A stretch of 64,000 nucleotides of DNA from Minisyncoccia bacterium (GTDB lineage Bacteria > Patescibacteriota > Minisyncoccia > UBA6257 > JAAZHW01). The stretch's first letter is position 1, and every line of letters starts with the position of its first letter. Below, piece after piece: positions 14,765-48,371 of this stretch. Where the stretch lies: NCBI GenBank assembly GCA_041550235.1, contig JBFEPE010000001.1:8003-72002 (forward strand). Reading direction: 5' to 3'. Under the pieces are notes generated by a model. That model was not told where the DNA came from. It did no database searches and saw nothing but the letters and a program-made list of their open reading frames with translations. A program made the position numbers and the translations under genes.

Positions 14765-15345
14765 GAAGACAAGATGGATATTGGCAGGCGAGCGAGGAGC
14801 TTAAAAATTTGATATAAGGGTATAAAATTGTATTTTTAATTTTCTAAATTGTTATGCGGAATAATTTAGAAAAAAGATGAGATATCGATTCCAAGCATCA
14901 CTTTTGTTATTTTTTAGAGGGGCGATTTATTAATTCCCTCCCCCGCCGTAGGCGGGGGAGGGAATGGAGTTAGAAAATAATAAGAGTGATGTTTGGATAA
15001 TAATATTTCTCATCGGGGCAGATAATTAAGGGTGTGTGGTGGATGCCTTGACTTGTAAAGGCGAAGAAGGACGTGGCGTGGCTGCGATAAGCTTCGGGGA
15101 GTTGCTTAGCAAACTTTGATCCGGAGATTTCCGAATGGGGAAACCCATCTCGAATTTAAACTCGAGATATCCCATCTTATCTTAAAGATGGGGAGCTAAC
15201 CCGCTGAAGTGAAACATCTCAGTAAGCGGAGGAAAAGAAAAAAAGATGAATTATTTGTTCCACTTGTTTTAAATATTAGAACAAGTAGAACATCTAATTC
15301 ATTCATTCCCTAAGTAGCGGCGAGCGAAAGGGGAAGAGCCCAAAC

Positions 15346-15448
15346 CCAGCCCCAGTTTTTATCTAGTGACGAAATTTGTATTTGATTAATTTATTAAGAA
15401 AAAGATTATTTATTCAAATAAAAGTGGCTGGTTAAAAACTGGGGCTGG
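15346..15448 (+). mobile_element. 23S intervening sequence copy a (hairpin element with CCAGCCCCAGTTTT / AAAACTGGGGCTGG termini)
   Basis: About 103-nt AT-rich insert bounded by a perfect 14-nt terminal inverted repeat. About 95% identical to copy e at 17801-17901. Confidence 0.7.
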
Positions 15449-15765
15449 GGGTTGTAAGATTATAAAATCTCGTTTAATCGTGGTAGAGAAAAAATTAAGT
15501 TTATTAATAGAATTTGCTGGGAAGCAAAACCAAAGAAGGTGATAGTCCTGTATATGAAAATTTACTTATCTCTATGTTTATTTTCTTGAGTACTTCGGAA
15601 AAGGAAAAATCCGAAGGAATCTAGCTGAACTATCAGCTAAGGCTAAATACTTTACAAGATCGATAGCGAACCAGTACCGTGAGGGAAAGGTGAAAAGCAG
15701 GCCGGTGAGGCCAGTGAAATAGTACCTGAAACCACACATTTACAAGCAATCAGAGTCTGTCATAT

Positions 15766-15945
15766 CTGTTTGTTCTTTTTAAATTTAAAATCTTTTTGAT
15801 CTACTTGCAGAAGGTCTTGAGATGCATTTTAGTTAGCAGGGGGGAGGCATTTTTTGCCTGGTTAAGACCATATTTTCCCTAGACCCAAACGGGATACCCC
15901 CATTGCTTTATTTAATAGTGTCCTTTTTAAAAAAAGGACAAACAG
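15766..15945 (+). other. 23S expansion segment / IVS bounded by ctgtttgttc...ggacaaacag
   Basis: About 180-nt insert relative to consensus 23S domain I/II. Closed by a 10-bp inverted repeat. Confidence 0.5.
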
Positions 15946-16011
15946 ATGTGGCGGATAATGGTGTGCCTATTGAAGAATGAGCCAACGAGTGTATGGATAT
16001 TGCTGATTAAC

Positions 16012-16119
16012 CCAGCCCCAGTTTTATGATAGTTTTCTAAAGTGAATAAAATTTTGATTCGCTTTGGAACGAGCGACATGTGTGTTGCTGATAAAACTTA
16101 TTGGTAAAACTGGGGCTGG
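16012..16119 (+). mobile_element. 23S intervening sequence copy b (same terminal inverted repeats, different interior)
   Basis: cccagccccagtttt...aaaactggggctgggg. Confidence 0.7.
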
Positions 16120-16660
16120 GGAAGTCAAAGGGAAACCAAGTCTTAACAGGCGACAACAATTTTTTCTTTTGGTCTTATTGGCTAAAGGAAAAATTTGTAA
16201 GTAGTATTCATACGACCCGAAGCCAGAGCGAGCTTGCCATGGCCAGGGTGAACCTCATCGAAAGATGAGGGGAGGCCCGAACCGTTAGGTCGTGCAAATC
16301 CTTCGGATGAGCTGTGGTAAGAAGTGAAAAGCTAATCGAGCCTGGTAATAGCTGGTTCTCCTCGAAATAGTTTTAGGACTAGCGTCTATTTTATCCTATT
16401 GCAGGTAGAGCTACTGGTTGAGAAGAATAGGGGGCAACCTCGGCTTCTTAGTCAAACTCCGAATGGTGATAGGTTATGAATAGGCAGTTAGACTGTGGGG
16501 GCTAAGCTCCATGGTCAAAAGGGCATGAACCCAGATCGCCATCTAAGGTCCCTAAATCTAGACTAAGTGTTGCAAAAGGTAGTGATCGACCGAAGACAGG
16601 TAGGATGTTAGCTTAGAGGTAGCTATCATTTAAAGAGTGTGTAACAACCCACTGCCATAT

Positions 16661-16762
16661 CCAGCCCCACTTTTTAACTTGAAATCTAAATTTTTCATTG
16701 GTTTATAATTGCAAAAAGTTTTAAATCGTGATTTATAGATTCTAGCTAAAAAGTGGGGCTGG
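16661..16762 (+). mobile_element. 23S intervening sequence copy c (variant termini CCAGCCCCACTTTTT / AAAAAGTGGGGCTGG)
   Basis: Inserted between gagtgtgtaacaacccactg and ggtcg of the conserved helix. Confidence 0.65.
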
Positions 16763-17377
16763 ATTGGTCGGTTGCATCGAAAATGTATCGGGGCTAAGTC
16801 TAGTACCGAAGTTGCGAATTTCCTCGCTTTTTAGTGGGGGAGTGGTAGAGGAGCATTCCATATGTGATGAAGCTGGACCCGAGAGGGCTGGTGGAGTATA
16901 TGGAAGAGAGAATGTTGGCATGAGTAACCGCAAGCAAGGTGAGAAACCTTGTCGCCGAAAACCCAAGGTTTCCGTGGCAATGTCAATCAGCCACGGGTTA
17001 GGCGGCCCTAAGGCGATGGCGAAAGCCGTAGTCGATGGACAGCTGGTTAATATTCCAGCTCTTCTAAGTAAATTCGATGGAGTGACGGGGGAAATAAGGT
17101 TGAGTGTCTTATTGGTTTGGCATTACTACCCCTAAGAAATGTTTTTTTGGTAAATCCGGAAAACTGCTTTTAATAGCGAATTTCGGGGGATGCAAAATTC
17201 CGCTTCGGCGGGAAATTTGACTGAATAGCCCTCCAAGAAAAGCTTCTAAGATATATTTATTTAGAATCCGTACTCTAAACCGACACAGGTGGGTAGGTAG
17301 AGAATACCAAGGCGAACGGGTGAGTCTTCCTTAAGGAACTCGGCAAAAAAGCGACCGTAAGTTCGCGATAAGGTCTT

Positions 17378-17683
17378 CCAGCCTCAGTTTTGTGTTATAA
17401 TTTATGATATGTGGGTTGTATATATCATACAAAATGATTTTTCAGAAGAAATCTATATCGGCATAACCAAGGATTTAAAAAGAAGAATCTCAACTCATAA
17501 TTCTAATGGCAAAAAATTTACCACTAGGAAAAATGGTAAATGGATTTTGATTTATGCTGAGGCATACAAGTCAAAAAAAGATGCTATTGTAAGAGAGATG
17601 AAATTGAAAAATCATGGAAGTGCAAAGCATAATTTAATTAAACGAATTAAAAATAGTTTAATTGAACACAAAACTGAGGCTGG
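17378..17683 (+). mobile_element. 23S intervening sequence copy d, carrying a GIY-YIG endonuclease ORF (termini CCAGCCTCAGTTTT / AAAACTGAGGCTGG)
   Basis: Same terminal inverted-repeat architecture as copies a-c and e, but 306 nt long with an internal ORF. Confidence 0.7.
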
Positions 17684-17756
17684 ACGCAGCGAAAGTATCC
17701 CTGGCGACTGTTTATCAAAAACACAGGTCCCTGCTAACTCGCAAGAGGATGTATAG
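17409..17756 (+). CDS. GIY-YIG family homing endonuclease-like ORF inside 23S IVS (C-terminal ~25 aa read through into rRNA exon)
   Basis: VYIIQN...YIGITKDLKRRISTHN matches GIY-(10)-YIG with conserved R and H/N. The ORF starts 18 nt inside the IVS. Confidence 0.6.
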   Translation: MWVVYIIQNDFSEEIYIGITKDLKRRISTHNSNGKKFTTRKNGKWILIYAEAYKSKKDAIVREMKLKNHGSAKHNLIKRIKNSLIEHKTEAGRSESIPGDCLSKTQVPANSQEDV

Positions 17757-17800
17757 GGGCTGATGCCTGACCGATGCGGGAAGGTTAAATCTGGCGGTCC

Positions 17801-17901
17801 CCAGCCCCAGTTTTTATCTAGTGACGAAAATTTGAATTTAATTAATTTATTAAAAAAGATTATTTATTCAAATAAAAGTGGCTGGTTAAAAACTGGGGCT
17901 G
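17801..17901 (+). mobile_element. 23S intervening sequence copy e (near-identical to copy a)
   Basis: ccagccccagtttttatctagtgacgaaaatttgaattta...aaaactggggctgg. Confidence 0.7.
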
Positions 17902-18379
17902 GGGGCTAACTGGATGAAGCCCCCGTCAATGTCGGCCGTAACTATAACGGTCCAAAGGTAGCGAAATTCCTTGTCGGGTAAATTCCGACGTGCATGAACG
18001 GCTTAACGACTGGGGAACTGTCTCAAGGAAGAGCCCGGTGAAAATGCAATTTCAGCGAAGATGCTGAGTACCCGCAGCAAGACGAAAAGACCCCGGGAGC
18101 TTTACTGTAGCTTGGTATTGGGCTTGAGAATGTAATGCGTAGCATAGGTGGGAGACTTTGAAGTTTCAATTTCGGTTGAGATGGAGTCGCCAGTGAAATA
18201 CCACTCTTTATATTTTTAAGTTCTAACCTTGATGGAAAAAACATTAGGGGACAGTGCCTGGTGGGCAGTTTTTCTGGGGCGGAATCCTCCCAAAGAGTAA
18301 CGGAGGAGTTTATTAAGGTCAGCTAGGTGCGGATGGAAATCGCACTGATAGTGTAAAGGCAAAAGCTGGCTTAACTGCG

Positions 18380-18480
18380 AGGCCTACAAGCCGAGCTCTA
18401 TTTCGTGTTTCGCATAAGAACTTTCAAGAAAATAATAATTCTACCCCCGCCCATACGGGCGGGGGTAGAATAGGCAAATT
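18380..18480 (+). repeat. 23S expansion containing a GC-hairpin repeat (ctacccccgcccatacgggcgggggtag)
   Basis: About 100-nt insert relative to consensus. It carries the same hairpin family seen in intergenic regions. Confidence 0.5.
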
Positions 18481-18596
18481 TAACTCTGGAATTTCTTGTG
18501 CGGAGCATGAGATAGACTTTCTAGATAATTATATTTAGATCGAGATACGAAAGTAGAACTTAGTGACCCGATGGTTCTCTGTAGAAAGGCCATCGA

Positions 18597-18628
<32 letters not shown>

Positions 18629-18766
18629 TTAGTTGCGCCCAAGAGTCCATATCGACGGCGCAGTTCGACACCTCGATGTCGGCTCATCTTATCCTGGAGG
18701 CGGAGAAGCTTCCAAGGGTTTGGCTGTTCGCCAATTAAAAAGATACGCGAGCTGGGTTCAGACCGT

Positions 18767-19122
18767 TGAGTAGTCAAGATAATTTTTGGTTTTTAGGGTG
18801 GATAGTGTGTTTCTTTCTCTTAAATTAATTAAAATTATTATTAAATTGACTTTTCAGCAGTCTGAATCCGAGGAATAAGACATCAATTTACGGCGGCATT
18901 TCGTAGTAATACGGAATGAAAAACCGACTCATATCGGTGGAATCCCAATGGGACAATACCGAGGGAAGTTGTGTATGTTAATATCATGGTGGTCATTTCG
19001 TCAAATAAAAGATAATGTTAAATGACATGCATTAACCCCGTAGAGACTATATGTCGGTCTCCTCTTTTGACAAAGAGGACGAAGATATAGTCCAATGCAC
19101 TTAGTAATAAGTGGGAAACATG
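18767..19122 (+). mobile_element. Group I intron in 23S rRNA (ORF-less, ~356 nt)
   Basis: Exon junction gaccgt|cgtaagacaggttgg reconstitutes conserved GAACGUCGUGAGACAGUUCGG. Intron follows a U and ends in G. R-like gtagagacta (19040-19049) and S-like aagatatagtcc (19082-19093). Confidence 0.6.
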
Positions 19123-19263
19123 CGTAAGACAGGTTGGTCTCTATCTGCTGTGGGCGTTGATACTTGAGGGAATTTGACCCTAGTACGAGAGGACCGGGTT
19201 GAACGAACCTCTGGTCTATCAGCTTTCCTACCAGGGGAATTGCTGAGTAGCTAAGTTCGGTTG

Positions 19264-19296
<33 letters not shown>

Positions 19297-19480
19297 CATC
19301 CCAAGATTAGGTATCCATTTCAATTTATTGGAAGTCATCCCCTCAGAGACGATGAGGTTGATAGGCTTTAGGTGTAAGGTCAGTAATGATTTTAGCCAAG
19401 AAGTACTAATCGGATGAGTTCTGCCTCGATGAGAGATATTATTTATTATTAATATCAATTTTTACCCTTATATTTTTAAG

Positions 19481-20258: not shown

Positions 20259-20373
20259 TATTGGTATTTTATCTAAGTGTGACCCACCTGTTCCCATTCC
20301 GAACACAGAAGTGAAAGCATTTAGACCCGATGGTACTTGCCCGAACACGGTTGGTAGAGTAGGGTATGCCAAT
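20259..20373 (+). rRNA. rrf: 5S ribosomal RNA
   Basis: ccacctgttcccattccgaacacagaagtgaaag...ccgatggta...agagtagggtatgcc. Helix I pairs ttggtat with atgccaa. Confidence 0.8.
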
Positions 20374-20386
20374 ATTCAAAAGATTT

Positions 20387-27650: not shown

Positions 27651-27723
27651 GCCGTTGTAGCTCAGTTGGTAGAGCAACGCCGTGGTAAGGCGTAGGTCAG
27701 CGGTTCAAGTCCGCTCAACGGCT
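27651..27723 (+). tRNA. tRNA-Thr (anticodon GGT), island-borne copy
   Basis: gccgttg/caacggc acceptor. D-arm gctc-agttggta-gagc. Anticodon arm acgcc-gtGGTaa-ggcgt. T-arm agcgg-ttcaagt-ccgct. Discriminator T. Confidence 0.85.
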
Positions 27724-27748
27724 CCTTAAAAAGCATTACAGATTAGTA

Positions 27749-29326: not shown

Positions 29327-29334
29327 TTAGCACA

Positions 29335-29365
29335 AATCCGTTCTAACTCAGAGCGGATTTTAATT
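29335..29365 (+). terminator. Hairpin terminator
   Basis: aatccgttctaactcagagcggatttt. Confidence 0.5.
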
Positions 29366-29400
29366 TATCTCTTGCCAATAAGAAATTTCGCCGTATAATA

Positions 29401-29592
29401 AAATCAATAATTTAATATGCCTAACCCCTATGATTATTCATAGGGTATGGCGATAAATCCATCCCTGTATTGAGCTCCTCGTTCAGCTTATCAGGGATGG
29501 TCATATTCGGAAACGGATATGGATGATCGCAAGATCGTCAGGTTGGCGGGGAGCTTTGTGTTCCAAGTCAACCACTAAAACCATCCCTAAAT
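29401..29592 (+). ncRNA. Candidate structured cis-regulatory RNA in the 5' leader of the 29593 membrane-protein gene
   Basis: Locally GC-richer. Hairpins ccctatga-ttat-tcataggg; ccatccctg...cagggatgg; tattcg-GAAA-cggata; gatc-GCAA-gatc; ggttg...caacc. A second ccatccc copy abuts the start codon. Confidence 0.4.
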
Positions 29593-30837: not shown

Positions 30838-33216
30838 ATGGATATAAAAATAGTAAATAAATATCTAAGTTCTCAAAAATTGAAAGCAGTGGAAATGCTT
30901 GATTTTGAAAATGGGAAAATAAAGTATTCTGATTTAATTAAACAATACAGGGAAATAAAGAATTTTAAAGGAAATGAAGAAATTGTTAGAGCTTATTTAT
31001 TATCCAAACTTTCTAATGAATTAGGATATAAGTTGGAAAATATTGAAATAGAAAAAGAATATGATATTGGTCGGCCAAAGGTTAATAAGCCAAGAATTGA
31101 TTTAATCGTCAGGGACGATGAAGGAAATGCTTTTCTATATGTTGAATTAAAAAGCCCTGAGGAATATGAAAAAAACAAGGATGAAGTAATTGAAAAACAA
31201 TTATTTGGCTTAACTTCTCAGGAAAAGGGACAAGGAAAAAATGTGAAATATCTTGTTCTCTATTCTTTTGAAATTATAAACGAAGAAATAAAAGATAGAG
31301 CAATTATTATTGATTATGAAAAATATTCATCTTTTGATAAGTGGGAAGAAGAAAGAAATTTTACTGATGAATTGCCAAAAAGATACGGTAAAGCCCAAAA
31401 AGAGCCATACAAAAAAGGTGGCAAAAAAGACTTGAGAGCCGATTTTGCTCCCGAAGAATTAGAAGCAAAAAGAAAAAATCTTCATAATGTTTTATGGGGT
31501 GGGGGCGGAACAGACGATAACGAAATCTTTGCCTCTTTGGTAAGAATTATTTTAGCTAAAATTCAAGATGAAACTGAAAGAAAAAATGGTGAAAAATATG
31601 AATTTCAGATTTTTTCTTTTCAAGACGGGGATAGCTTTGAAAGTAATGAAGAAATTTTTGAAAGAATAAATAAACTTTACAGAAGGGCTTTGAAGGAAAA
31701 AATGTATATTACCGATGAAAACAAGATAGAAAAATCTTTTGTTATTGATGAAAACAAGTTTTCTATTAGTAAATTAAAATATACTATTTCCGAGTTAGAA
31801 GAATATTCTTTTGTTGATGGAAAAGATAGCTTTAATGGAAAGGATATTTTAGGCCAATTTTTTGAGGGTATTGTCCGAGACGGCTTTAAGCAAAATAAAG
31901 GGCAATTCTTTACTCATTCTAATATTGTCCAATTTATCCTTTATGCCCTTCAATTAGATAAATTGGCGATAGAAAGAATAAATAAAGATAAAGAAATTCC
32001 TTATTTGATTGATCCTTCGGCTGGAAGCGGAACATTTTTGATTGAGTATATGAATTTTATTACTCAAAACATTAAATACAAACAAAAAGATAAATTAGAT
32101 AATAACCGAGATATTGAAGATAAATTCAATGACTGGTTTATGCCTTATAATAGAGAGAATAAATGGGCTAAAGATTTTATCTATGGCGTAGAACATAACT
32201 TTGATTTAGGAACTGCCTCAAAAGTTAATATGATTTTACACGGAGACGGCTCAACAAATATTTTTGTTAAAGACGGACTTCTTCCTTTTAATTACTATAC
32301 CAAAGACAAAGGAGTTAATATTCTTGATGATGAGAAAGAAGATAAAGAATATTTTGATAAGAATATCAACGGAAAATTTGATGCTATTATTACTAATCCG
32401 CCTTTCTCGGTGGATTTAGATAAAGATACTAAAAAAACACTAAAAGATAGTTTTGTTTTTGGGGATAAGAAAAATTCTGAAAATCTTTTTGTTGAAAGGT
32501 GGTATCAATTATTAAAAGAGAATGGAAGATTGGGAGCAGTCTTGCCTGAAAGTGTTTTTGATACTACGGAAAATAAATATATTAGATTATTTTTATATAA
32601 ATATTTTAAAATAAAGGCGGTTGTTTCTTTGCCTCAATTAGCTTTTCAGCCCTATACTTCCACTAAAACCAGCTTGCTTTTTGCCCAAAAGAAAACCCAA
32701 GAAGAAATTAAAAAATGGGATGAATTATGGGCGACTTATTCTAAGGATTATAGTCAATTAAAAACAAGGGTAGAAAAAGAGGTAGAACATTTTATCAAAG
32801 GAAAAGAAATTCAAAAGAGTTGGGCTATTGCTAAAGAAACAGAGAAAAGAAGAAAGGATAATGTTCTTTATCTTCTTAATCAAGTTATAGATAGAAAGAT
32901 TGATTTAGATTTATCTCTTCAAGAATTGGTTGAAAAATATCAAGACGAAATAATAGATCTGTTGAAAATAGAGAAAGAAACAGATGTTTTTGGCTTTGTT
33001 AATGCTTGGTGGGTATTTGGTGCTGTTTCTAAAGAATTGGATTATCCAATCTTTATGGCCGAAGTTGAAAATGTTGGTTATAAAAGGACAATAAGAGGAT
33101 TAAAACCAATGCCAAATGATTTATTCAGAAGGAATGAAAATGGCGAAATTATGATTGATGATAATAAAAAAGAAACCGCTTTAGATTTTATGAGGTCGGA
33201 TGTGGAGTGGGATTAA
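30838..33216 (+). CDS. Fused restriction-modification enzyme: N-terminal PD-(D/E)XK nuclease + gamma-class N6-adenine DNA methyltransferase (Type IIG/IIB A-subunit-like)
   Basis: PRIDLIV...FLYVELK (D...ExK). MTase motif I LIDPSAGSGTFL. Motif IV AIITNPPFS. HsdM-like VVSLPQLAFQPYTSTKTSLLF. 792 aa. Confidence 0.8.
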   Translation: MDIKIVNKYLSSQKLKAVEMLDFENGKIKYSDLIKQYREIKNFKGNEEIVRAYLLSKLSNELGYKLENIEIEKEYDIGRPKVNKPRIDLIVRDDEGNAFLYVELKSPEEYEKNKDEVIEKQLFGLTSQEKGQGKNVKYLVLYSFEIINEEIKDRAIIIDYEKYSSFDKWEEERNFTDELPKRYGKAQKEPYKKGGKKDLRADFAPEELEAKRKNLHNVLWGGGGTDDNEIFASLVRIILAKIQDETERKNGEKYEFQIFSFQDGDSFESNEEIFERINKLYRRALKEKMYITDENKIEKSFVIDENKFSISKLKYTISELEEYSFVDGKDSFNGKDILGQFFEGIVRDGFKQNKGQFFTHSNIVQFILYALQLDKLAIERINKDKEIPYLIDPSAGSGTFLIEYMNFITQNIKYKQKDKLDNNRDIEDKFNDWFMPYNRENKWAKDFIYGVEHNFDLGTASKVNMILHGDGSTNIFVKDGLLPFNYYTKDKGVNILDDEKEDKEYFDKNINGKFDAIITNPPFSVDLDKDTKKTLKDSFVFGDKKNSENLFVERWYQLLKENGRLGAVLPESVFDTTENKYIRLFLYKYFKIKAVVSLPQLAFQPYTSTKTSLLFAQKKTQEEIKKWDELWATYSKDYSQLKTRVEKEVEHFIKGKEIQKSWAIAKETEKRRKDNVLYLLNQVIDRKIDLDLSLQELVEKYQDEIIDLLKIEKETDVFGFVNAWWVFGAVSKELDYPIFMAEVENVGYKRTIRGLKPMPNDLFRRNENGEIMIDDNKKETALDFMRSDVEWD

Positions 33217-34672
33217 AAAAACTATGGGAAACAACCAAACTTCAGAAAAAATAAAAATAGAGATAAAAGATGTTATGCCTGACTTTAAAGAGCATTTATC
33301 ATTAAAAGGAAATGATAGAGTGTTTTTTTCTGGTAAATTTGGAATTGGAAAGAGTTATTTCTTAAAAGAATTTTTTAGATTAGGAGAGGAAAACTATGAG
33401 GTTTTTTATCTATTACCAACGAGGTATCAAATAAGTCCCAATGAAGATATTTTAGATTTTATAAAATACGATGTTTTAGTTGATTTAATAAATAAAAATA
33501 AAGAAATTTTTAAAGGCAACAATTTTAATAGCTTTATAGATCTAAAAAGATTGTTTTATATTTGGGGCAAGGATAATTTTTACGAGATTTTTAAAAAGGG
33601 GTTAGATTTTATTCCAAAATTAGGCAAACCTTTAAAAGAAGTCGTTAATTTAATTGATAATTTTAGAAATTTCAAATACGAAGTTGAATTAGGCGACAAG
33701 GGTTTTGTAGATAATTACATCAAGGAAATAAAGTCCAAAGATATAGTTGAAAGCGATCATTTAAGTTATTTATTAACTGAAAAAATAAACAATTTAAAAG
33801 GAGAAAAAGAAAGTGTTTTGATAATAGACGATTTAGATAGAATTGACCCAGACAATATTTTTAGAATTTTAAATATTTTTTCTGTTTATTTCAACGAAGA
33901 TAATTCTGAAATGCCTAATAAATTTGGTTTTGATAGGATTATTTTTGTTGGCGACCATAAAAATATAAGAAGTATTTTTAACCATAAATATGGAGAAAAT
34001 ACCGATTTCAGAGGTTATTTCAATAAATTTTTTAGATATAAAATTTATGAATTTGATAACGACAAGGCTATAGAAAATGCTGTAAGTATATTGATAGATA
34101 GTATGAAAGAAGTTGGAATAAATGTATCAAAAATTTTTGAAAAATTAGGATACGGCAGGCTTTTATTGGAAGATGTTTTAAAGAGATCAATAAATTTAAA
34201 ATCAAATAAAGAAAAGGTTAATTTAAGGCAACTTTTAAATGTTTATCTTTTTCCAAGTCTTCATTTAAAAGATAACAAATACTATAACGATCAATTTCTC
34301 TCTATTGCTAAGAAAATGATCCAATTTATAGATTTATCAATTAAGTTTTTAATTGATATTTTTGGTGGAGATGAAAAATTTTTGATAGAAGTTTTGAATA
34401 AGATAATTCTTGAATCTGGATTTTATAAAAATCAAAATTATAGAGATGACCTCTATAATCATTATTCAAGAGCTATATTAAGTGAGATTTTAAATAAAAA
34501 TTTTGTAAAAGATAGTAATAATCCTGCGGAAGAAAAGTGGGAAGAAAATTTAGGTAATGTTATAGGGAATGTGGCCGGAGGCCCTGAATTAAAAGTATTT
34601 TATACCTTGTTAATTAAATACTTAGAAAGTGGTAAATATAAAAAGGATAGTATTAGAAATTATGATTTATAG
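33200..34672 (+). CDS. KAP-family P-loop NTPase
   Basis: Walker A FSGKFGIGKSYFLKEF. KAP-type Walker B VLIIDDLDRIDPDNIF. 490 aa. Overlaps the preceding gene by 17 nt. Confidence 0.65.
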   Translation: MWSGIKKTMGNNQTSEKIKIEIKDVMPDFKEHLSLKGNDRVFFSGKFGIGKSYFLKEFFRLGEENYEVFYLLPTRYQISPNEDILDFIKYDVLVDLINKNKEIFKGNNFNSFIDLKRLFYIWGKDNFYEIFKKGLDFIPKLGKPLKEVVNLIDNFRNFKYEVELGDKGFVDNYIKEIKSKDIVESDHLSYLLTEKINNLKGEKESVLIIDDLDRIDPDNIFRILNIFSVYFNEDNSEMPNKFGFDRIIFVGDHKNIRSIFNHKYGENTDFRGYFNKFFRYKIYEFDNDKAIENAVSILIDSMKEVGINVSKIFEKLGYGRLLLEDVLKRSINLKSNKEKVNLRQLLNVYLFPSLHLKDNKYYNDQFLSIAKKMIQFIDLSIKFLIDIFGGDEKFLIEVLNKIILESGFYKNQNYRDDLYNHYSRAILSEILNKNFVKDSNNPAEEKWEENLGNVIGNVAGGPELKVFYTLLIKYLESGKYKKDSIRNYDL

Positions 34673-34681
34673 AGAATTAAA

Positions 34682-36124
34682 ATGCTAAAAAATTTTACAA
34701 CACAATTTAGAGATTTAGGCAAAGAAACATCAATTAGATTTGATTTCAGTTTTATTGATTTTCAAAATACTTTTTTAGTTAAAGATTATTATTCTTTTAG
34801 TGATTTATTTGAAATTAAGGAGAACAACAGAAAGGATATTTCTGAAATAAAGGATGATTTTTACTATTCAGAAATAGGAAATGTTAATAAATTGGGAGAG
34901 GTTGATCCAGTAAAATTAAATTTTGATGAAAAGTCTGAAGAATATTTAGATTATTTTAAGAAAATAGAGAGGGGAGATATTATTGAGGTCGGGGAAGGGG
35001 AAATTCTAATATCAAAAGTTCGTCCTAATCTAAAGAAATATGTTTTTATTGATGATAAAAATAAAGAATATTTTTATACTTCTGCTTTTATTCACTTAAA
35101 ACCAAAAAAATTAAATAAAGTTTTATATTATTCATTAAGAAGTTTATTTTTTGATAATTTAATAGCTATTTCAAGACAGGGCAAAGGTTATCCTACTTTG
35201 AAAAATGAAGATTTATATTACTTAAAATTCAATAAAGAAATGATTGATAAATTAGAAAGTAAAGAAAAAGATATAAATAGCAAAATAATCCCCAATGAAA
35301 ATAAAATTAAGGAATTGAAAGACAAAATAGAAAAACCGCAGGATATAATCAATGAAGTTTTTGCTAATGAATTTAGTTTTGATTTAAAAAAATTTGAGGA
35401 ATTAAAGAAAGAAAATATTTTTTCTGTTAATTTTAGTGATTTTTCTAATTACCACAGCCTAAGATTTGATTTTAAAAACAAGAAATTTTTTCCAATTTTT
35501 GAAGATATTATTTCAAAACTTGATACAATTAGACTAAAAAATATTGTTTTAGAAGATCCGCTTTATGGAGCAAATGAGCCTGCTATTGATGGTGTTGTTG
35601 GTAATGATATAAGATATGTAAGAATAACTGATATAGATGATTTGGGGGAATTAACAAATAACGAATGGAAAACCGCCGAAAATATAGACGAAGTTTATTT
35701 ATTAAAAGATTTAGATTTTCTTTTTGCGAGAAGTGGTAATACGGTCGGTAAAAGTTTTTTATATAATTCAAATAAACACGAAAAATCTATTTTTGCTGGA
35801 TATTTTATAAAATTTAAAATTGATTTTAAAAATTTAAATCAATTATTTTTCCTTTATTATTCAAAATCTTTTATTTTTGAATTATGGAAAAATGGAATTG
35901 TAAGAGTAAAGGGGCAACCAAATATAAATGCTAACGAATATTTAGAACTTCAAATTCCTAATATCCCATTATCTAAACAAAAAGAAATAGTTAAAAAAAT
36001 AAAATCTCGATTAGATAGACAAGAAGAAATCAAAAAAGAAATAGAAAAAGAGAGGGATAAGATAGATAAAATAATTGAAAATGCTATAATACAAACACTT
36101 GAGGGCTATAAGCCCCTGCTCTAA
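34682..36124 (+). CDS. Type I/IIB restriction-modification specificity (HsdS-like) subunit with two target-recognition domains
   Basis: Two TRD signatures (ISRQGKGYPTLKNEDLYYLKF; ARSGNTVGKSFLYN). C-terminal coiled-coil spacer KQKEIVKKIKSRLDRQEEIKKEIEKERDKIDKII. 480 aa. Confidence 0.7.
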   Translation: MLKNFTTQFRDLGKETSIRFDFSFIDFQNTFLVKDYYSFSDLFEIKENNRKDISEIKDDFYYSEIGNVNKLGEVDPVKLNFDEKSEEYLDYFKKIERGDIIEVGEGEILISKVRPNLKKYVFIDDKNKEYFYTSAFIHLKPKKLNKVLYYSLRSLFFDNLIAISRQGKGYPTLKNEDLYYLKFNKEMIDKLESKEKDINSKIIPNENKIKELKDKIEKPQDIINEVFANEFSFDLKKFEELKKENIFSVNFSDFSNYHSLRFDFKNKKFFPIFEDIISKLDTIRLKNIVLEDPLYGANEPAIDGVVGNDIRYVRITDIDDLGELTNNEWKTAENIDEVYLLKDLDFLFARSGNTVGKSFLYNSNKHEKSIFAGYFIKFKIDFKNLNQLFFLYYSKSFIFELWKNGIVRVKGQPNINANEYLELQIPNIPLSKQKEIVKKIKSRLDRQEEIKKEIEKERDKIDKIIENAIIQTLEGYKPLL

Positions 36125-36152
36125 AATTCGGGGTGAGGGTTTTTGTAAAAAT

Positions 36153-37715: not shown

Positions 37716-38603
37716 ATGACAAAAAAAGAGAATGATTTGTTTATAAACGATTTTCCAATGGTAAATTCAGATGAAGAATTAGAAGAATTATCATTACAAT
37801 ACCCAAAATATGATCCATATTATATAGCCAGTGGCTCAATAAAGGACAGAAAAGAGTATTTTGAAAAACTTTGGAAGATTTATAGAAACTATGCTGATAA
37901 GCATTTTTTGAAAGAAGTTAAAACCAATTTTCATCAGAGGAGTTGGGAGATGTATTTATCTAATTTATTTATTGAAAATGGATTTGAAATTTCCTCTAAA
38001 GATAAGGGGCCTGATATAAAAATTGATTTGGGAGATAGGAATTTATGGATAGAATGCGTGGCTTCAAAAAAAGGCGAGAAATCTGATAAGGTTCCAGATA
38101 TGATGTATGAGGTTGTTCAAGATGTGCCAGCAGATAAAATGTTATTAAGAATAACCAACTCAATAGATAAAAAATTTAAGAAATATCAAAAATATGTGAA
38201 AGACAGCATAATAAAAAAAGGGGATTATTATATTATTGCTGTGAATGCCGGAGGGTTTGGATATATTGTTGATACAGATATGCCTTTAATTCTTAAATGT
38301 TTAATTTCTATTGGTTTTTGGAGTTATAAAAAATTAGAAGATGGATCATTTAGTAAGCCATTTCTTAGCAGGAGAGAATATATAGAAAAACAAAACAAGA
38401 AAAAAGTAAAAATGAATTATTTTGAAGATAAGAAATATAATGGAATTAGCGGAGTTATCTATACTCCAAACAATGTTCTAAATTTAAGAGATAAAGATGA
38501 TTGTATATTTATTAGCAATCCCTTGGCTAAAAATGAGTTGCCAAAAAGTTATTTACCATTTATTCGTGAAGTCAAAATAACAAAAGATAAAATAATTTTT
38601 TAA
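37716..38603 (+). CDS. Hypothetical protein with possible PD-(D/E)XK nuclease core
   Basis: GPDIKIDLGDRNLWIECVASKKG resembles a D...E.K active-site arrangement. Otherwise unrecognised. Confidence 0.4.
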   Translation: MTKKENDLFINDFPMVNSDEELEELSLQYPKYDPYYIASGSIKDRKEYFEKLWKIYRNYADKHFLKEVKTNFHQRSWEMYLSNLFIENGFEISSKDKGPDIKIDLGDRNLWIECVASKKGEKSDKVPDMMYEVVQDVPADKMLLRITNSIDKKFKKYQKYVKDSIIKKGDYYIIAVNAGGFGYIVDTDMPLILKCLISIGFWSYKKLEDGSFSKPFLSRREYIEKQNKKKVKMNYFEDKKYNGISGVIYTPNNVLNLRDKDDCIFISNPLAKNELPKSYLPFIREVKITKDKIIF

Positions 38604-38612
38604 TACGAAAAT

Positions 38613-39065
38613 ATGATAAAAATAAGAAACAAAAAAATTGAAGTTTTGGTTGCCTATACTACTCCCGAAATGTGGGATGCTGTTGAAGATACAAAAATAG
38701 CAGTTCAGGGCCAAAGTGCCAAAGACGCTGATTATTTTGCTTTTGCGAGAATGGGATTAAAAGAAAATAAAGGAAGAGCGATAATTACTCATATTGCCGA
38801 AATTGGCAAAACAAAATCAAATGTTCCAGTTGAAGAATATATTAAAAAATTTCCTAAATTATCAGAATACTTTAGAAAAAGAAATTGGAATGGTTTTAGT
38901 AAGGAATACTATTTAGAGAATATCCGAGAATTAAAAAATCCCATTTATCATAAAATAGGCGACAAAGCCAAGGGAAGAGTAAGATTTTATACAAATTTGA
39001 ATGAGTTAAAAAATGCTAATTTTATGAGGGATATTAAAACATTAAGTCAGTTAAATAAAAGATAA
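38613..39065 (+). CDS. Hypothetical protein (150 aa)
   Basis: Tightly linked within the operon (10-nt gap). No family recognised. Confidence 0.4.
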   Translation: MIKIRNKKIEVLVAYTTPEMWDAVEDTKIAVQGQSAKDADYFAFARMGLKENKGRAIITHIAEIGKTKSNVPVEEYIKKFPKLSEYFRKRNWNGFSKEYYLENIRELKNPIYHKIGDKAKGRVRFYTNLNELKNANFMRDIKTLSQLNKR

Positions 39066-39321: not shown

Positions 39322-41454
39322 ATGGAAATATCACAATTATTATCAGCAATAAACAAAAAAGAAATAGTCGTTCCTGAGTTCCAAAGAGAATATGTTTGGA
39401 GATTAGAACAAGCAAAAGAATTGATGACTTCTCTGTTTAAGGATTATCCAACAGGAAGTATTTTAGTTTGGCCAACAAATAAACCGCCAAAGATAAAAAA
39501 CAATGCTGTTGATATTAAAGATATTGGGACGGTTAGGGTTTTATTAGATGGCCAACAGAGATTAACCACTTTATATCTCTTAATTAAAGGACAAATTCCG
39601 CCATATTACAGAGAAGACGACATAACGAATGATCCAAGACATTTATATTTCAATTTAGAAACAGGAGATTTCAACTACTATCAAAAACAAAAAATGGAAG
39701 GGAACTCTTTTTGGAAAAGAGTTGTTGATTGTTTCAATGATGATTTTGATATTTTTTCTTTGGAAAATGATATAAAAGAAAAAGGTGGAGATTTTTCTGA
39801 ATTAGGGAGAAAAATAAACAATAACATTGGAAAATTAAAAAGTATTTTAAGAGAAGATTATCATATTCAACAAGTTCCCGATGGGGTAGAAATTGATGAA
39901 GCTATTGATATTTTTGATAGAGTTAATTCAAAAGGAACAAAACTTACTGATGCCGAGCTTGTTTTAACTCATATCGCTGGAAAATGGCCGGAAGTTAGAG
40001 AGAAGATGAAAGAAAGCATAAGAGAATATAGAAAAACTGGTTTTGATTTTAGTTTAGATTTTCTAACAAGATGTATGACAATAATTATTACCAAATCAGC
40101 CCTCTTTGAAAAAATGAATGATGAGATTTATAAGAATACAAGAGAAGAAGATTATAAAGAAAAATGGAAAAATCTAACCAAGATATTTAATTATTTGCTT
40201 CCAATCTTAAAAGAAAATGGTTATATAAACGGAAGTGGAGATTTAAGCACTAATAATGTTTTAGTTCCAATAGTTGCCTATATTTCTCAAAATTCTTTTT
40301 CTTTTCCAAATACTCCAATTAGAAACTATTTCTTATACTGGATGTTTTTGGCTTCTGTTTGGGGCCGATATAGTAGCCGAACCGACCAAAGTTTAGACAG
40401 AGATGTTTATCTTGCTATAAACAGCCAAAATCCGATAGATGACTTACTTAAAGAAATAGAAGACCAAAGGGGAAGATTAGAGGTAAAACAAGCAGATTTA
40501 GAAGGGAGAGGATCGGCACACCCGCTCTATAAAATGCTTGGAATTTTGGCTCGGTATAATAAGGCGATTGACTGGAAGAATGGCGGATCTCTCAATGAAA
40601 CATTAGGAGAAGAATATGCTATTCATAGTCATCATATTTTTCCACAAGGTCTTTTATATAAAAATGGATATACTTCCGATAATCATTTAGATAAAAAAAT
40701 TGTTAATGAGATAGCAAATAGGGCTTTTATAACAAGAGATGCCAACCTTGATATTTCAGACAAGAAACCGCTTGATTATCTAAGAGAAATAAAGAAAAAA
40801 TATCCCGAAGCTCTAAAACAGCAATTTATACCTGAATTTGAAAATTTATGGGATATAGGCAAATTTAGAGATTTTTTGGCCGAAAGAAGAATTTTAATAG
40901 CTCAATCTATAAATGATTTTCTTGATAATCTAAAAGCTGAAGGTGAAAAGATAGAGATTGATAGAGTTGATTATGAAAAGATTATAGAAAGAGGAGAAGA
41001 CAATTACATAGAGTTCAAATCTTCTTTAAGGTGGGATATGAATAGAAATACAACTAACTCAGATTTAAAAAAAGAAATAGCCAAAGCAATGTCAGCCTTT
41101 ATGAATACGGAAGGAGGCAGATTATTTATTGGAGTTAATGATGAGGGTGAAATTTTAGGATTAGATAATGATTATAAGACATTAGGAACACGACAAAATA
41201 AAGACGGATTTCTTCAAAAAATGGATCAGGTAGTTGAAAATTACTTAGGAAGGGAATTTTTTGAGTATATTAGCATTAAGATAATAAAAATAGATGATAA
41301 GGATGTCTGTTTAGTTGAATTAACTAATAGCGGAAAACCTGTCTATCTGAAATTAAAAGACAAAGAGGAGTTTTATATTAGGGGATCAGCCTCTTCTCGT
41401 CCATTAAGTTTGAGTGAAGCCAATGAATATATTAAAAATCATTCTTGGGAATAA
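39322..41454 (+). CDS. GmrSD-like Type IV restriction-type protein: DUF262 (ParB-like NTPase/nuclease) + DUF1524 (His-Me/HNH) + C-terminal Schlafen/AlbA_2 domain
   Basis: N-terminal VVPEFQREYVW (DUF262). Central EYAIHSHHIFPQGLL...NRAFITRDANLDISDK (DUF1524). C-terminal IEFKSSLRWD...AFMNTEGGRLFIGVNDEGEILGL (AlbA_2). Confidence 0.75.
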   Translation: MEISQLLSAINKKEIVVPEFQREYVWRLEQAKELMTSLFKDYPTGSILVWPTNKPPKIKNNAVDIKDIGTVRVLLDGQQRLTTLYLLIKGQIPPYYREDDITNDPRHLYFNLETGDFNYYQKQKMEGNSFWKRVVDCFNDDFDIFSLENDIKEKGGDFSELGRKINNNIGKLKSILREDYHIQQVPDGVEIDEAIDIFDRVNSKGTKLTDAELVLTHIAGKWPEVREKMKESIREYRKTGFDFSLDFLTRCMTIIITKSALFEKMNDEIYKNTREEDYKEKWKNLTKIFNYLLPILKENGYINGSGDLSTNNVLVPIVAYISQNSFSFPNTPIRNYFLYWMFLASVWGRYSSRTDQSLDRDVYLAINSQNPIDDLLKEIEDQRGRLEVKQADLEGRGSAHPLYKMLGILARYNKAIDWKNGGSLNETLGEEYAIHSHHIFPQGLLYKNGYTSDNHLDKKIVNEIANRAFITRDANLDISDKKPLDYLREIKKKYPEALKQQFIPEFENLWDIGKFRDFLAERRILIAQSINDFLDNLKAEGEKIEIDRVDYEKIIERGEDNYIEFKSSLRWDMNRNTTNSDLKKEIAKAMSAFMNTEGGRLFIGVNDEGEILGLDNDYKTLGTRQNKDGFLQKMDQVVENYLGREFFEYISIKIIKIDDKDVCLVELTNSGKPVYLKLKDKEEFYIRGSASSRPLSLSEANEYIKNHSWE

Positions 41455-44417: not shown

Positions 44418-45344
44418 ATGAAAGATCTATTTGAACAATTTATAAAACAGCAAGAATATGTTGAAAGGAAAAGAAAAAAGACGATAGAAAATTATCGGCA
44501 GAATTTTAATTTATTGTTTGGCTTTAAGCCTGATTTGAAATTGGAAGATTTAACCGAAGAAACAATGATTGATTTCTTTGAGTATCTTGATACAAGGGAA
44601 AGAAGGGTCGGAAAGAAAATGATTGTTAGAAAAATTAAAAATTCCAGTATCGCCACAATAAGAGGAAAATTAGAGGTATTTTTTAGGTGGTTAGTTGATA
44701 GGGAGCATATCAAATCTAATCCATTTGAAAAAATACCATACCCGGAAGTTTCCTACACAAGCAAAGAGGCTTTCACGAAAGAGGAATTTGATAAAATTTT
44801 TATAAACATCGTTAGAGATATTAAATGGGTCAATGATTTTTTGCGAAAAAGAAACACAGCAATGATAATGACTTTAGTATTAACTGGGATAAGAAGAGAA
44901 GAGTTATTAGAATTAAAGCTGTCTGATATTGATTGGAAGAATAAAAAAATAACAATTAGAGATGAAACTTCTAAATCTAAAAGAACAAGAACTATTCCTA
45001 TGTCGCCAGATTTGAGGCCATTTTTAGAGGATTATTTAATAACCAGAACTAATAAGAAAAATAGTTTTCTTTGGGTCAATGGCAGAGATGAAAAATTTAC
45101 TGAACACGGCTGGAAGCATCTTGTTAAAAAACTAAAAGAAGAAACAGAAACTAATTTCCGCACCCATAGATTTAGACATACATTTGCTTGTAATTATTAT
45201 CGGCAGAGAAAAGATCCGGTTGGATTACAAAAAATGATGGGACATCAAGATATTAAAACTACTTTTAAGGTATATTTGCGATCCATAGATGATGATGATT
45301 TAACAAAAGAAATGAATAAATTTAAGATTTCTAAGTTTTATTAA
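44418..45344 (+). CDS. Tyrosine site-specific recombinase/integrase (second copy, divergent from 27749)
   Basis: HRFRHTFACNYYRQRKDPVGLQKMMGHQDIKTTFKVYL. N-terminal SAM-like core-binding domain. 308 aa. Confidence 0.9.
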   Translation: MKDLFEQFIKQQEYVERKRKKTIENYRQNFNLLFGFKPDLKLEDLTEETMIDFFEYLDTRERRVGKKMIVRKIKNSSIATIRGKLEVFFRWLVDREHIKSNPFEKIPYPEVSYTSKEAFTKEEFDKIFINIVRDIKWVNDFLRKRNTAMIMTLVLTGIRREELLELKLSDIDWKNKKITIRDETSKSKRTRTIPMSPDLRPFLEDYLITRTNKKNSFLWVNGRDEKFTEHGWKHLVKKLKEETETNFRTHRFRHTFACNYYRQRKDPVGLQKMMGHQDIKTTFKVYLRSIDDDDLTKEMNKFKISKFY

Positions 45345-45550: not shown

Positions 45551-45592
45551 ATGGTAAGGAGTAGGTCAGCGGTTCAAGTCCGCTCATTGGCT
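45551..45592 (+). pseudogene. 3' half of the split tRNA-Thr(GGT) gene
   Basis: atggtaa-ggagt-aggtc-agcgg-ttcaagt-ccgct-cattggc-t. Complements the 5' half at 27457-27494 (gccaatg/cattggc, actcc/ggagt). Confidence 0.75.
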
Positions 45593-45599
45593 CTTTTAG

Positions 45600-45625: not shown

Positions 45626-45636
45626 TTTTTCTTTTA

Positions 45637-45716
45637 AAAATATGTTAAAATATATACATATTTAGAGGGCAAAAGCCCCTGCTCTGAATCTTTGGGGTAG
45701 GGGTTTTAATATAAAT
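45637..45716 (+). repeat. Copy 1 of a ~50-bp direct repeat plus hairpin cassette (second copy at 48282-48371; partial third at 36101-36152)
   Basis: aaaaatatgttaaaatatatacatatttagagggcaaaagcccctgctct...ggggtaggggtttt...atATG. Confidence 0.75.
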
Positions 45717-48022: not shown

Positions 48023-48281
48023 ATTAATATTATACTATAATAATAGATTTAATGACATACTTACTCTTAAATAGTGAAAGACGGCGAGCAATCTTGTCGC
48101 TTTGTTGATTTAATAATACCATAATTAAAGATAATATAAAGTCTAAAATTCCAGAAGTAATTATTTAGAGAATTAAGCATTCAAAAATTTAGTATTTTTA
48201 ATATTATATAGATTGCTTTTTATTGTCAGATTTTTTATTTATCAAATTTGCCATAATAATACAGGCAAATTTATTTTATTT

Positions 48282-48371
48282 AAAAATATGTTAAAATATA
48301 TAAATATTTAGAGGGCAAAAGCCCCTGCTCTATTTGTGTCGAGATGGGGCTTTTATTATTAAATTAAAAAT
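48282..48371 (+). repeat. Copy 2 of the direct repeat plus hairpin cassette
   Basis: aaaaatatgttaaaatatataaatatttagagggcaaaagcccctgctct; perfect stem aaaagcccc/ggggctttt, then attattaaattaaaaatATG. Confidence 0.75.

Follow-up and report, generated by a model that had tools for sequence, protein, structure and literature searches.

Why does the gene of a KAP-family P-loop NTPase lie between the two genes of a single restriction-modification (R-M) enzyme? The question is raised by a 64,000-nucleotide stretch (hereafter the window) of the contig JBFEPE010000001.1 from a Minisyncoccia bacterium, in which the plus-strand KAP gene (33200-34672) is embedded between the gene of a nuclease-methyltransferase subunit (RM; 30838-33216, plus strand) and the gene of that enzyme's specificity subunit (S; 34682-36124, plus strand), as a sequence-only reading of the window had described. 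That reading took the placement to indicate a dedicated ATP-dependent regulator or sensor of restriction. Our analysis points elsewhere: with a probability of about 0.58, the KAP protein is an independent embedded defence layer that is carried as cargo of the RM-S operon, and such an embedded gene fits the linkage pattern of the family better than a subunit or a regulator does.

We compared the RM/S junction across ten loci that encode enzymes resembling the Type IIB enzyme BsaXI, namely the KAP-bearing locus and related ones. In seven of these, an invariant ATGGGATTAA forms a 10-nt overlap of the two genes, RM ending with Trp-Asp-stop and S beginning with Met-Gly-Leu, and nothing lies between the two genes (L167 from Brachyspira hyodysenteriae, L168-177, L179, L180/181, L182, L183/184 and L185). 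The seven cargo-free loci encode an RM of the short class (described below) that is 67-70% identical to the one in the window and have no KAP gene nearby; the BsaXI-like enzyme family clearly exists without KAP. The other three loci carry a gene between RM and S, and it is a different gene in each: the KAP gene in the window, a gene for a 250-aa protein with two to three N-terminal membrane helices in L166 (11428-12180), where RM is 78% identical, and, in L178 (6921-8456), a gene for a 511-aa protein that combines an RNase_HII domain with a CxxC...CxxC zinc ribbon and is PIN-like at its C-terminus. The latter two are uncharacterised defence candidates. Because three loci hold different genes and seven hold none, the RM/S junction of the BsaXI-like family is a slot that accepts unrelated cargo.

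The traces of this exchange can be read at the junctions themselves. In all three cargo loci the old overlapping ATG of S has been mutated and S has been given a new start. A degenerate remnant of the canonical S start, identified by comparison with the junctions of L167, L168, L179 and L180, persists at the 3' end of RM in the window (33207-33216, plus strand) and reads GTGGGATTAA in place of the canonical ATGGGATTAA, and the new 5' end of S, ATGCTAAAAAA, is common to the KAP locus and L166. A simple target-site duplication was considered for the KAP insertion but gained no support; the insertion is flanked by AT-rich 7-8-mers only, which at 24% GC are not distinguishable from chance. The closest RM homologue, P0126, has 83% identity and lies outside the set of ten loci.

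The KAP gene is tightly packed against RM whichever start codon it uses. With the ATG at 33200 the protein has 490 aa and the gene overlaps the RM stop codon (33214-33216) by 17 nt, as the sequence-only reading had it; that overlap stands for this start and disappears if the second ATG, at 33224 (MGNNQ...), is used, which gives 482 aa and lies 7 nt past the RM stop. Since the alignment of the KAP homologues begins at 33224 and the cargo gene of L166 in the same slot begins 6 nt past the RM stop, the second ATG is at least as likely to be the true start. At the other end, 9 nt (34673-34681), rather than the 10 nt first counted, separate KAP from S.

The wider family was followed through loci fetched around KAP homologues (80 genome, 80 metagenome and 3 viral), the KAP proteins of which were dereplicated at 90% identity to 142; the closest homologue, P0002, lies on a 2.5-kb contig and yielded no neighbourhood. 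R-M genes were labelled on our own open reading frame (ORF) calls with hidden Markov models (HMMs) seeded from Pfam-checked examples. An R-M gene directly precedes KAP (position -1) in 27 of 130 loci (20.8%) and directly follows it (+1) in 16 of 126 (12.7%); the values are 12 of 105 (11.4%) at +2 and 10 of 108 (9.3%) at -2, against a background of 14 of 642 (2.2%) six or more genes away. The enrichment at -1 is therefore roughly 10-fold. In 26 of 133 assessable loci an R-M gene lies in the same tightly spaced, same-strand run as KAP; of the 57 loci of close homologues, 14 have KAP and an R-M gene in a common operon, and in 24 an R-M gene is found no more than three genes away. Taken overall, KAP and an R-M gene form a common operon in 20-25% of loci, and at 30-42% of loci the nearest R-M gene is at most three genes distant. 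The recurrent R-M linkage that the sequence-only reading expected is thus present, and the lack of linkage that it had named as contrary evidence was not seen, because R-M genes stand at -1 in 20.8% of loci and make up 2.2% of the background.

The R-M partners are diverse. KAP interrupts Type I systems in the order hsdM-KAP-hsdS-hsdR (L008, L011, L015, L020, L122 and L135-139), hsdR-KAP-hsdS (L081) or hsdS-KAP-hsdR (L044), and stands beside MmeI-type IIG enzymes (L030, L032 and L033), an Eco57I/TaqI_C IIG enzyme (L010), Type III mod genes (L094, L099 and L024, with a helicase-type restriction subunit next in L094) and DpnII (L109 and L158). With the Type IIB system of the window, five types are represented (I, IIB, IIG, II/DpnII and III), and they have no subunit in common. 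Housekeeping genes, such as those for phosphoglycerate kinase (PGK), methylmalonyl-CoA mutase and acyl-CoA dehydrogenase, adjoin KAP at many loci, and the non-R-M neighbours are often defence genes (DUF4268, T5orf172, AAA_13, HerA, DUF6119 and GmrSD). No universal partner gene was found in 62 close loci, and no non-R-M partner recurs throughout the family, with ORFs down to 30 aa taken into account. In a neighbour-joining (NJ) tree, embedded and solitary members are interleaved and different R-M types fall in different clades; the KAP protein of the window stands alone on a long branch, and the neighbouring clades occur in other contexts. The linkage of the KAP family with R-M genes is real, position-specific, repeatedly re-created and optional. 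The step from placement to a dedicated regulator or sensor is consequently unsupported on several counts: only 20-25% of members share an R-M operon, the partners are of five types, embedded and solitary members interleave, and the same RM/S junction holds unrelated cargo in two loci and nothing in seven.

Several neighbourhoods show further associations. A DUF5677 protein of ~240 aa is encoded directly upstream of KAP in L007/L114, L010, L017, L083 and L091, usually with hsdR or the gene of a Type IIG enzyme preceding it, and this pairing may be a two-gene variant of the system. AAA_13 ABC-type ATPases of about 750-800 aa stand beside KAP in L142, L148 and L150, with a 97-aa ORF between, and an AAA_13 ATPase directly follows S in the BsaXI-like L183/L184 (7824-10166); Hachiman (HamA and a helicase) follows S in L185. 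UvrD-like helicases adjoin KAP homologues in L100 and L130/L132. The Flavobacterium loci L030, L032 and L033 carry a more distant KAP subfamily, 0-5 nt past the MmeI-family Type IIG gene, and downstream of it conserved proteins of ~350 aa and ~150 aa of unknown function, a DEAD-box helicase and a T5orf172 protein; these clusters may form a larger composite system. KAP is split or truncated in L022, L034, L068, L116 and L127, which could reflect pseudogenisation or assembly error.

The KAP protein is a soluble AAA+/STAND-like P-loop NTPase of a widespread family of ~480 aa. The Pfam KAP_NTPase profile (PF07693) matches residues 44-345 (profile positions 26-279 of 293) with E=3.2e-10 and 40.2 bits, against a gathering cut-off of 20, and also matches 70 of 71 homologues, which upholds the original family assignment. 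KAP family P-loop NTPases, reportedly described by Aravind et al. in 2004, have a Walker A motif GxxGxGKS/T, a Walker B motif hhhhDDLDR followed by a conserved Arg and Pro, and, between the strands that bear these two motifs, a long helical insert; transmembrane (TM) helices in this insert belong to eukaryotic and some bacterial members only and are not obligatory. The Walker A GKFGIGKSYF (33332-33361, plus strand; residues 45-54) and the Walker B/KAP motif IIDDLDRIDPDN (33821-33856, plus strand; residues 208-219) are found where they had been read, with the KAP-type GKFGIGKS at 45-52 and IIDDLDRIDP at 208-217. Gly48 and Lys51 of Walker A, as well as Asp210, Asp211, Arg214 and Pro217 of Walker B, are invariant in the 71-sequence alignment. 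In the AlphaFold2 (AF2) model, two strands (40-44 and 66-71) precede six helices (84-200), after which comes a strand at 204-209; the helical insert is thus present, though modelled with lower confidence, at a pLDDT (predicted local distance difference test) of about 50-65. The usual TM insertion, which the sequence-only reading had proposed to check, is missing: no 19-residue Kyte-Doolittle window averages above 1.2, and the protein is therefore a soluble member.

The fold resembles those of RdrA, TnsC and STAND ATPases; Cdc6/ORC, plant and animal NLRs, Avs3 and McrB also belong to the structural comparison. A PDB sequence search with the profile of the KAP family gave no meaningful match. 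The C-terminal region (residues 283-490; 34046-34669, plus strand) is all-alpha and has no recognisable effector fold. In a large protein collection, 1296 homologues were found with E<=1e-3, the best non-self one at E=1.4e-130 and 49% identity, so the ORF is not a chance reading frame. The family is common in Patescibacteria, the candidate phyla radiation (CPR), and present too in Bacteroidota. Two weak, partial matches were found in a plasmid collection (Prevotella and Segatella) and three distant ones among viral contigs; the RM gene had no match among the viral contigs.

The enzyme around the KAP gene is a predicted Type IIB system and not the Type I hsd system as which it had been labelled, because its two genes match RM.BsaXI and S.BsaXI. 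RM (792 aa) joins an N-terminal PD-(D/E)xK nuclease to a gamma-class N6-adenine methyltransferase, matches PDB 8w0p_A (RM.BsaXI) over residues 5-764 (E=3e-282, 942 bits), has the Pfam domains HSDR_N_2, N6_Mtase and Eco57I, and retains the nuclease residues Asp88, Glu103 and Lys105 and the methyltransferase motif NPPF at 520. S (480 aa), a subunit of the type with two target recognition domains and with a re-created start (MLKNF...), matches PDB 8w0p_C (S.BsaXI) over residues 9-467 (E=1.1e-65, 226 bits) and also matches PADLOC Specificity_I models. The nuclease and methyltransferase motifs of BsaXI are thus conserved, and the difference lies at the junction, where the KAP cargo separates the RM and S genes that canonically overlap by 10 nt. 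BsaXI homologues fall into one class of >850 aa with a knob and a paddle and another of <800 aa with the knob only, and the paddle is required for cleavage in BsaXI (PMC11997821). At 792 aa, RM falls in the short class, which lacks the paddle; it was not truncated by the KAP insertion, because homologues 67-83% identical share its length. Membership of the methylation-associated defence system (MADS) was also considered and rejected: the 191 bits for NCBIfam MADS2 and the 36 bits for MADS5 are far below the cut-offs of 720 and 400, the MAD2 and MAD5 matches reflect generic methyltransferase and S similarity only, and the KAP protein matches no MADS model.

Known systems offer several points of comparison. 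The PDC models were built from genes that lie inside operons of BREX, DISARM and Type I R-M systems and were put forward as 'guilt-by-embedding' candidates (Payne et al., 10.1101/2024.01.29.577857). One of them, PDC-S20, is like the KAP protein here a KAP-like NTPase family embedded in multi-gene defence operons; its hosts are BREX, DISARM and Type I R-M, whereas the host here is a Type IIB system, outside that survey. The KAP protein matches PDC-S20 over residues 157-455 only (40 bits, E=6.7e-11, profile positions 135-425 of 450); all 71 homologues match it weakly (best E 7e-13), and 17 of 71 match PifA. From these matches the ~480-aa family appears distantly related to PDC-S20 and PifA, and it is probably a sister family of PDC-S20. 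A literature search found no paper that names PDC-S20. In Enterococcus, single genes for KAP NTPases that have uncharacterised C-terminal regions confer protection from phages; this protection requires Walker B, as in EF_KAP, and is not abortive-infection-like, and the proteins carry TM helices (10.1101/2025.10.07.681051). In EF_KAP and its relatives and in PifA of the F plasmid, which act as single genes, the KAP P-loop domain precedes a C-terminal region that is uncharacterised, as in the KAP protein here; the C-terminal regions are unrelated.

RdrA and Tmn offer further comparisons. RdrA of RADAR (PDB 8fnt and 8fnu) has only 14-15% sequence identity with the KAP protein and partners with the adenosine deaminase RdrB, whereas the KAP family has no constant partner; no RdrB deaminase was found in the window or among the recurrent neighbours of the family. 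Tmn, a YobI-like transmembrane NTPase, comes from a P-loop clade that is related, and weak matches to YobI-ATPase were found for 5 of 71 homologues; in contrast to this membrane protein, the KAP protein here has no TM segments and no YobI match. The single-gene defence by Tmn is reported to synergise with Gabija, and a GajB-like helicase gene lies two genes downstream of KAP.

We infer the layering, the sensing and the output of the KAP protein alike. As an independent defence layer, KAP would be co-transcribed with RM and S and would act as a second line of defence, separate from the restriction enzyme. It would be a switch driven by nucleotide and would oligomerise on recognition of a phage-derived cue by its C-terminal helical domain. 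Its output would be intrinsic to the KAP protein, for example NTP consumption or the remodelling or sequestering of a phage complex; neither a separate effector domain nor a constant partner gene was found.

A number of points weigh against this preferred reading. The defence role of the ~480-aa family is a prediction, and PDC-S20 is matched weakly (about 40 bits) and in part. EF_KAP, a validated KAP defence protein, has TM helices, one of them within the NTPase domain, and the KAP protein here has none. No effector domain (HEPN or nuclease) is detectable in the C-terminal helical region. The strong preference for a place directly behind a methyltransferase gene and directly ahead of S, seen in two separate Type I clades and again here, could reflect a functional tie to M and S and not mere hitch-hiking. 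The R-M labels on which the linkage counts are built depend on our ORF calls and on the HMMs, Pfam having been applied to the seed examples.

One rival reading is a guardian of restriction in the manner of PrrC and PARIS. Contact with the R-M complex, or the normal activity of that complex, would then keep the KAP protein inactive, and the protein would fire, possibly abortively, once a phage anti-restriction factor disables restriction. The tight embedding in R-M operons and the roughly 10-fold enrichment at -1 agree with this, as does the recurrence of the M-KAP-S order in two separate Type I clades and in the Type IIB system here. There is also a precedent in PrrC, an R-M-embedded NTPase that senses R-M inhibition and that, in the PrrC model, is masked by the R-M complex until a phage anti-restriction factor appears (PMC12707154). 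The anticodon nucleases PrrC and RloC of Type I R-M loci are, like KAP, NTPases whose genes are embedded in an R-M operon; however, PrrC combines an ABC-type ATPase with a C-terminal nuclease, whereas the KAP protein has a KAP/AAA+-like fold without a nuclease domain, and no toxic effector is detectable in it. PrrC is almost exclusively embedded and many bona fide systems are only occasionally so (10.1101/2024.01.29.577857), and the KAP family, being solitary at most loci, does not behave as PrrC does. The five partner types without a common subunit and the unrelated cargo in the same slot of L166 and L178 likewise argue against a guardian, which we regard as unlikely.

A broader and equally unlikely proposal is that Type IIB and Type I systems alike have, where the methyltransferase (or RM) gene meets the S gene, a site dedicated to the exchange of defence cargo, and that KAP is a type-agnostic partner of restriction. 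In that case it would sense something shared by all R-M action or failure, such as unmodified or cleaved DNA or anti-restriction factors, and such a partner would explain the ~10-fold excess after methyltransferase genes of five R-M types.

Decidedly improbable is a KAP gene without a defence role, either a selfish passenger or a mobility ATPase of the TnsC/MuB AAA+ type, which would persist because deletion inside the operon risks breaking an addictive R-M system. The repeated gain and loss of the gene and its split or truncated copies in five loci are in keeping with this, but no transposase or recombinase consistently adjoins the KAP homologues, the similarity to TnsC is one that AAA+ cores show in general, with equal scores for Cdc6, NLRs and RdrA, and the neighbours outside R-M are often other defence genes. 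Least probable of all, although in keeping with a position between RM and S with gaps of at most 9 nt or an overlap and a short-class RM whose missing paddle a factor acting in trans might conceivably compensate, is an accessory subunit or regulator of the BsaXI-like enzyme (an ATP-dependent loader, an assembly factor or a control of RM:S stoichiometry that would set the balance of restriction and methylation), since seven short-class homologues have RM and S without KAP, BsaXI is active as (RM)2S alone (PMC11997821, PMC9159934), and the KAP protein stands alone on its branch among clades from other contexts. The remaining probability falls to explanations outside those named here.

The literature already has the general ideas that KAP NTPases act in defence and that R-M operons can have defence genes nested within them, and in our literature search we did not find the soluble KAP family, its prevalence in Patescibacteria or the Type IIB cargo slot described. 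It is proven that new antiphage systems can be found among the genes inside restriction operons, and phage protection by KAP NTPases has only recently been shown. To these the locus adds a KAP family, abundant in CPR bacteria, whose members are soluble and apparently effector-less, and it shows that RM/S junctions of the BsaXI-like Type IIB class, which lies outside the published survey of embedding, also host swappable cargo. The same R-M system occurring cargo-free or with one of three cargos provides a natural comparison set, in which a guardian and an independent layer could be told apart directly.

The RM-KAP-S operon lies on an island of ~17.9 kb integrated in a tRNA-Thr gene (27651-27725), with the features of a typical defence island. 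Its left edge is an attL-like repeat at the 3' end of the tRNA gene (27683-27727, plus strand), 45 nt long and 91% identical to the attR-like repeat at the right edge (45552-45596, plus strand), just past a tyrosine integrase gene with Pfam integrase domains (44418-45344); the GC content dips to 0.24-0.30 across the island. After S, with 9-nt gaps, come the genes of a UvrD/GajB-like helicase (36099/36153-37706; PADLOC GajB, E=2e-41), a PD-T7-5-like protein (37716-38603; E=1e-19) and a 150-aa protein of unknown function (38613-39065), which probably form a separate three-gene module. Further on lies the gene of a 710-aa protein in which GmrSD_N (DUF262) is fused to a Schlafen AlbA_2 domain at the C-terminus (39322-41454; PADLOC HEC-05, E=7.6e-51).

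Between the RM-KAP-S module and the helicase module stands the first copy of a leader element (36063-36152, plus strand), which encodes the last 12 codons of S within it; further copies lie at 45628-45716 and 48274-48371. The element is ~75-90 nt long, and each copy ends about 10-30 nt before an ORF start (36153, 45717 and 48372). It is built from a -10-like box, from GAGGGC..GCCCCTGCTCT and from a G-rich/T run, and its copies carry TTAGAGGGCAAAAGCCCCTGCTCT and GGGGTGRGGGTTTT. The element matches no Rfam family at gathering thresholds and could be a promoter/leader or a structured 5' untranslated region. The first copy appears to mark the boundary at which the RM-KAP-S module ends and the helicase module starts. 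A promoter-like site was found at 36063-36090 in a scan that returned 64 sites overall against 69.6 expected by chance, and the promoter/terminator scan found no plus-strand terminator-like site from 30.8 to 41.8 kb.

Also within the island, a LOOT RNA (Rfam RF03000, 86.6 bits) lies at 29418-29539, preceded by a terminator-like hairpin at 29334-29360 and a strong promoter-like site at 29372-29399. Elsewhere in the window, a 23S rRNA match at 15016-19428 extends over 4413 nt against 2925 positions in the model and therefore contains about 1.5 kb of insertions; the 5S rRNA follows at 20259-20375, and a 16S rRNA was not found in the 64-kb window. This rRNA layout fits a Patescibacteria/CPR-like genome.

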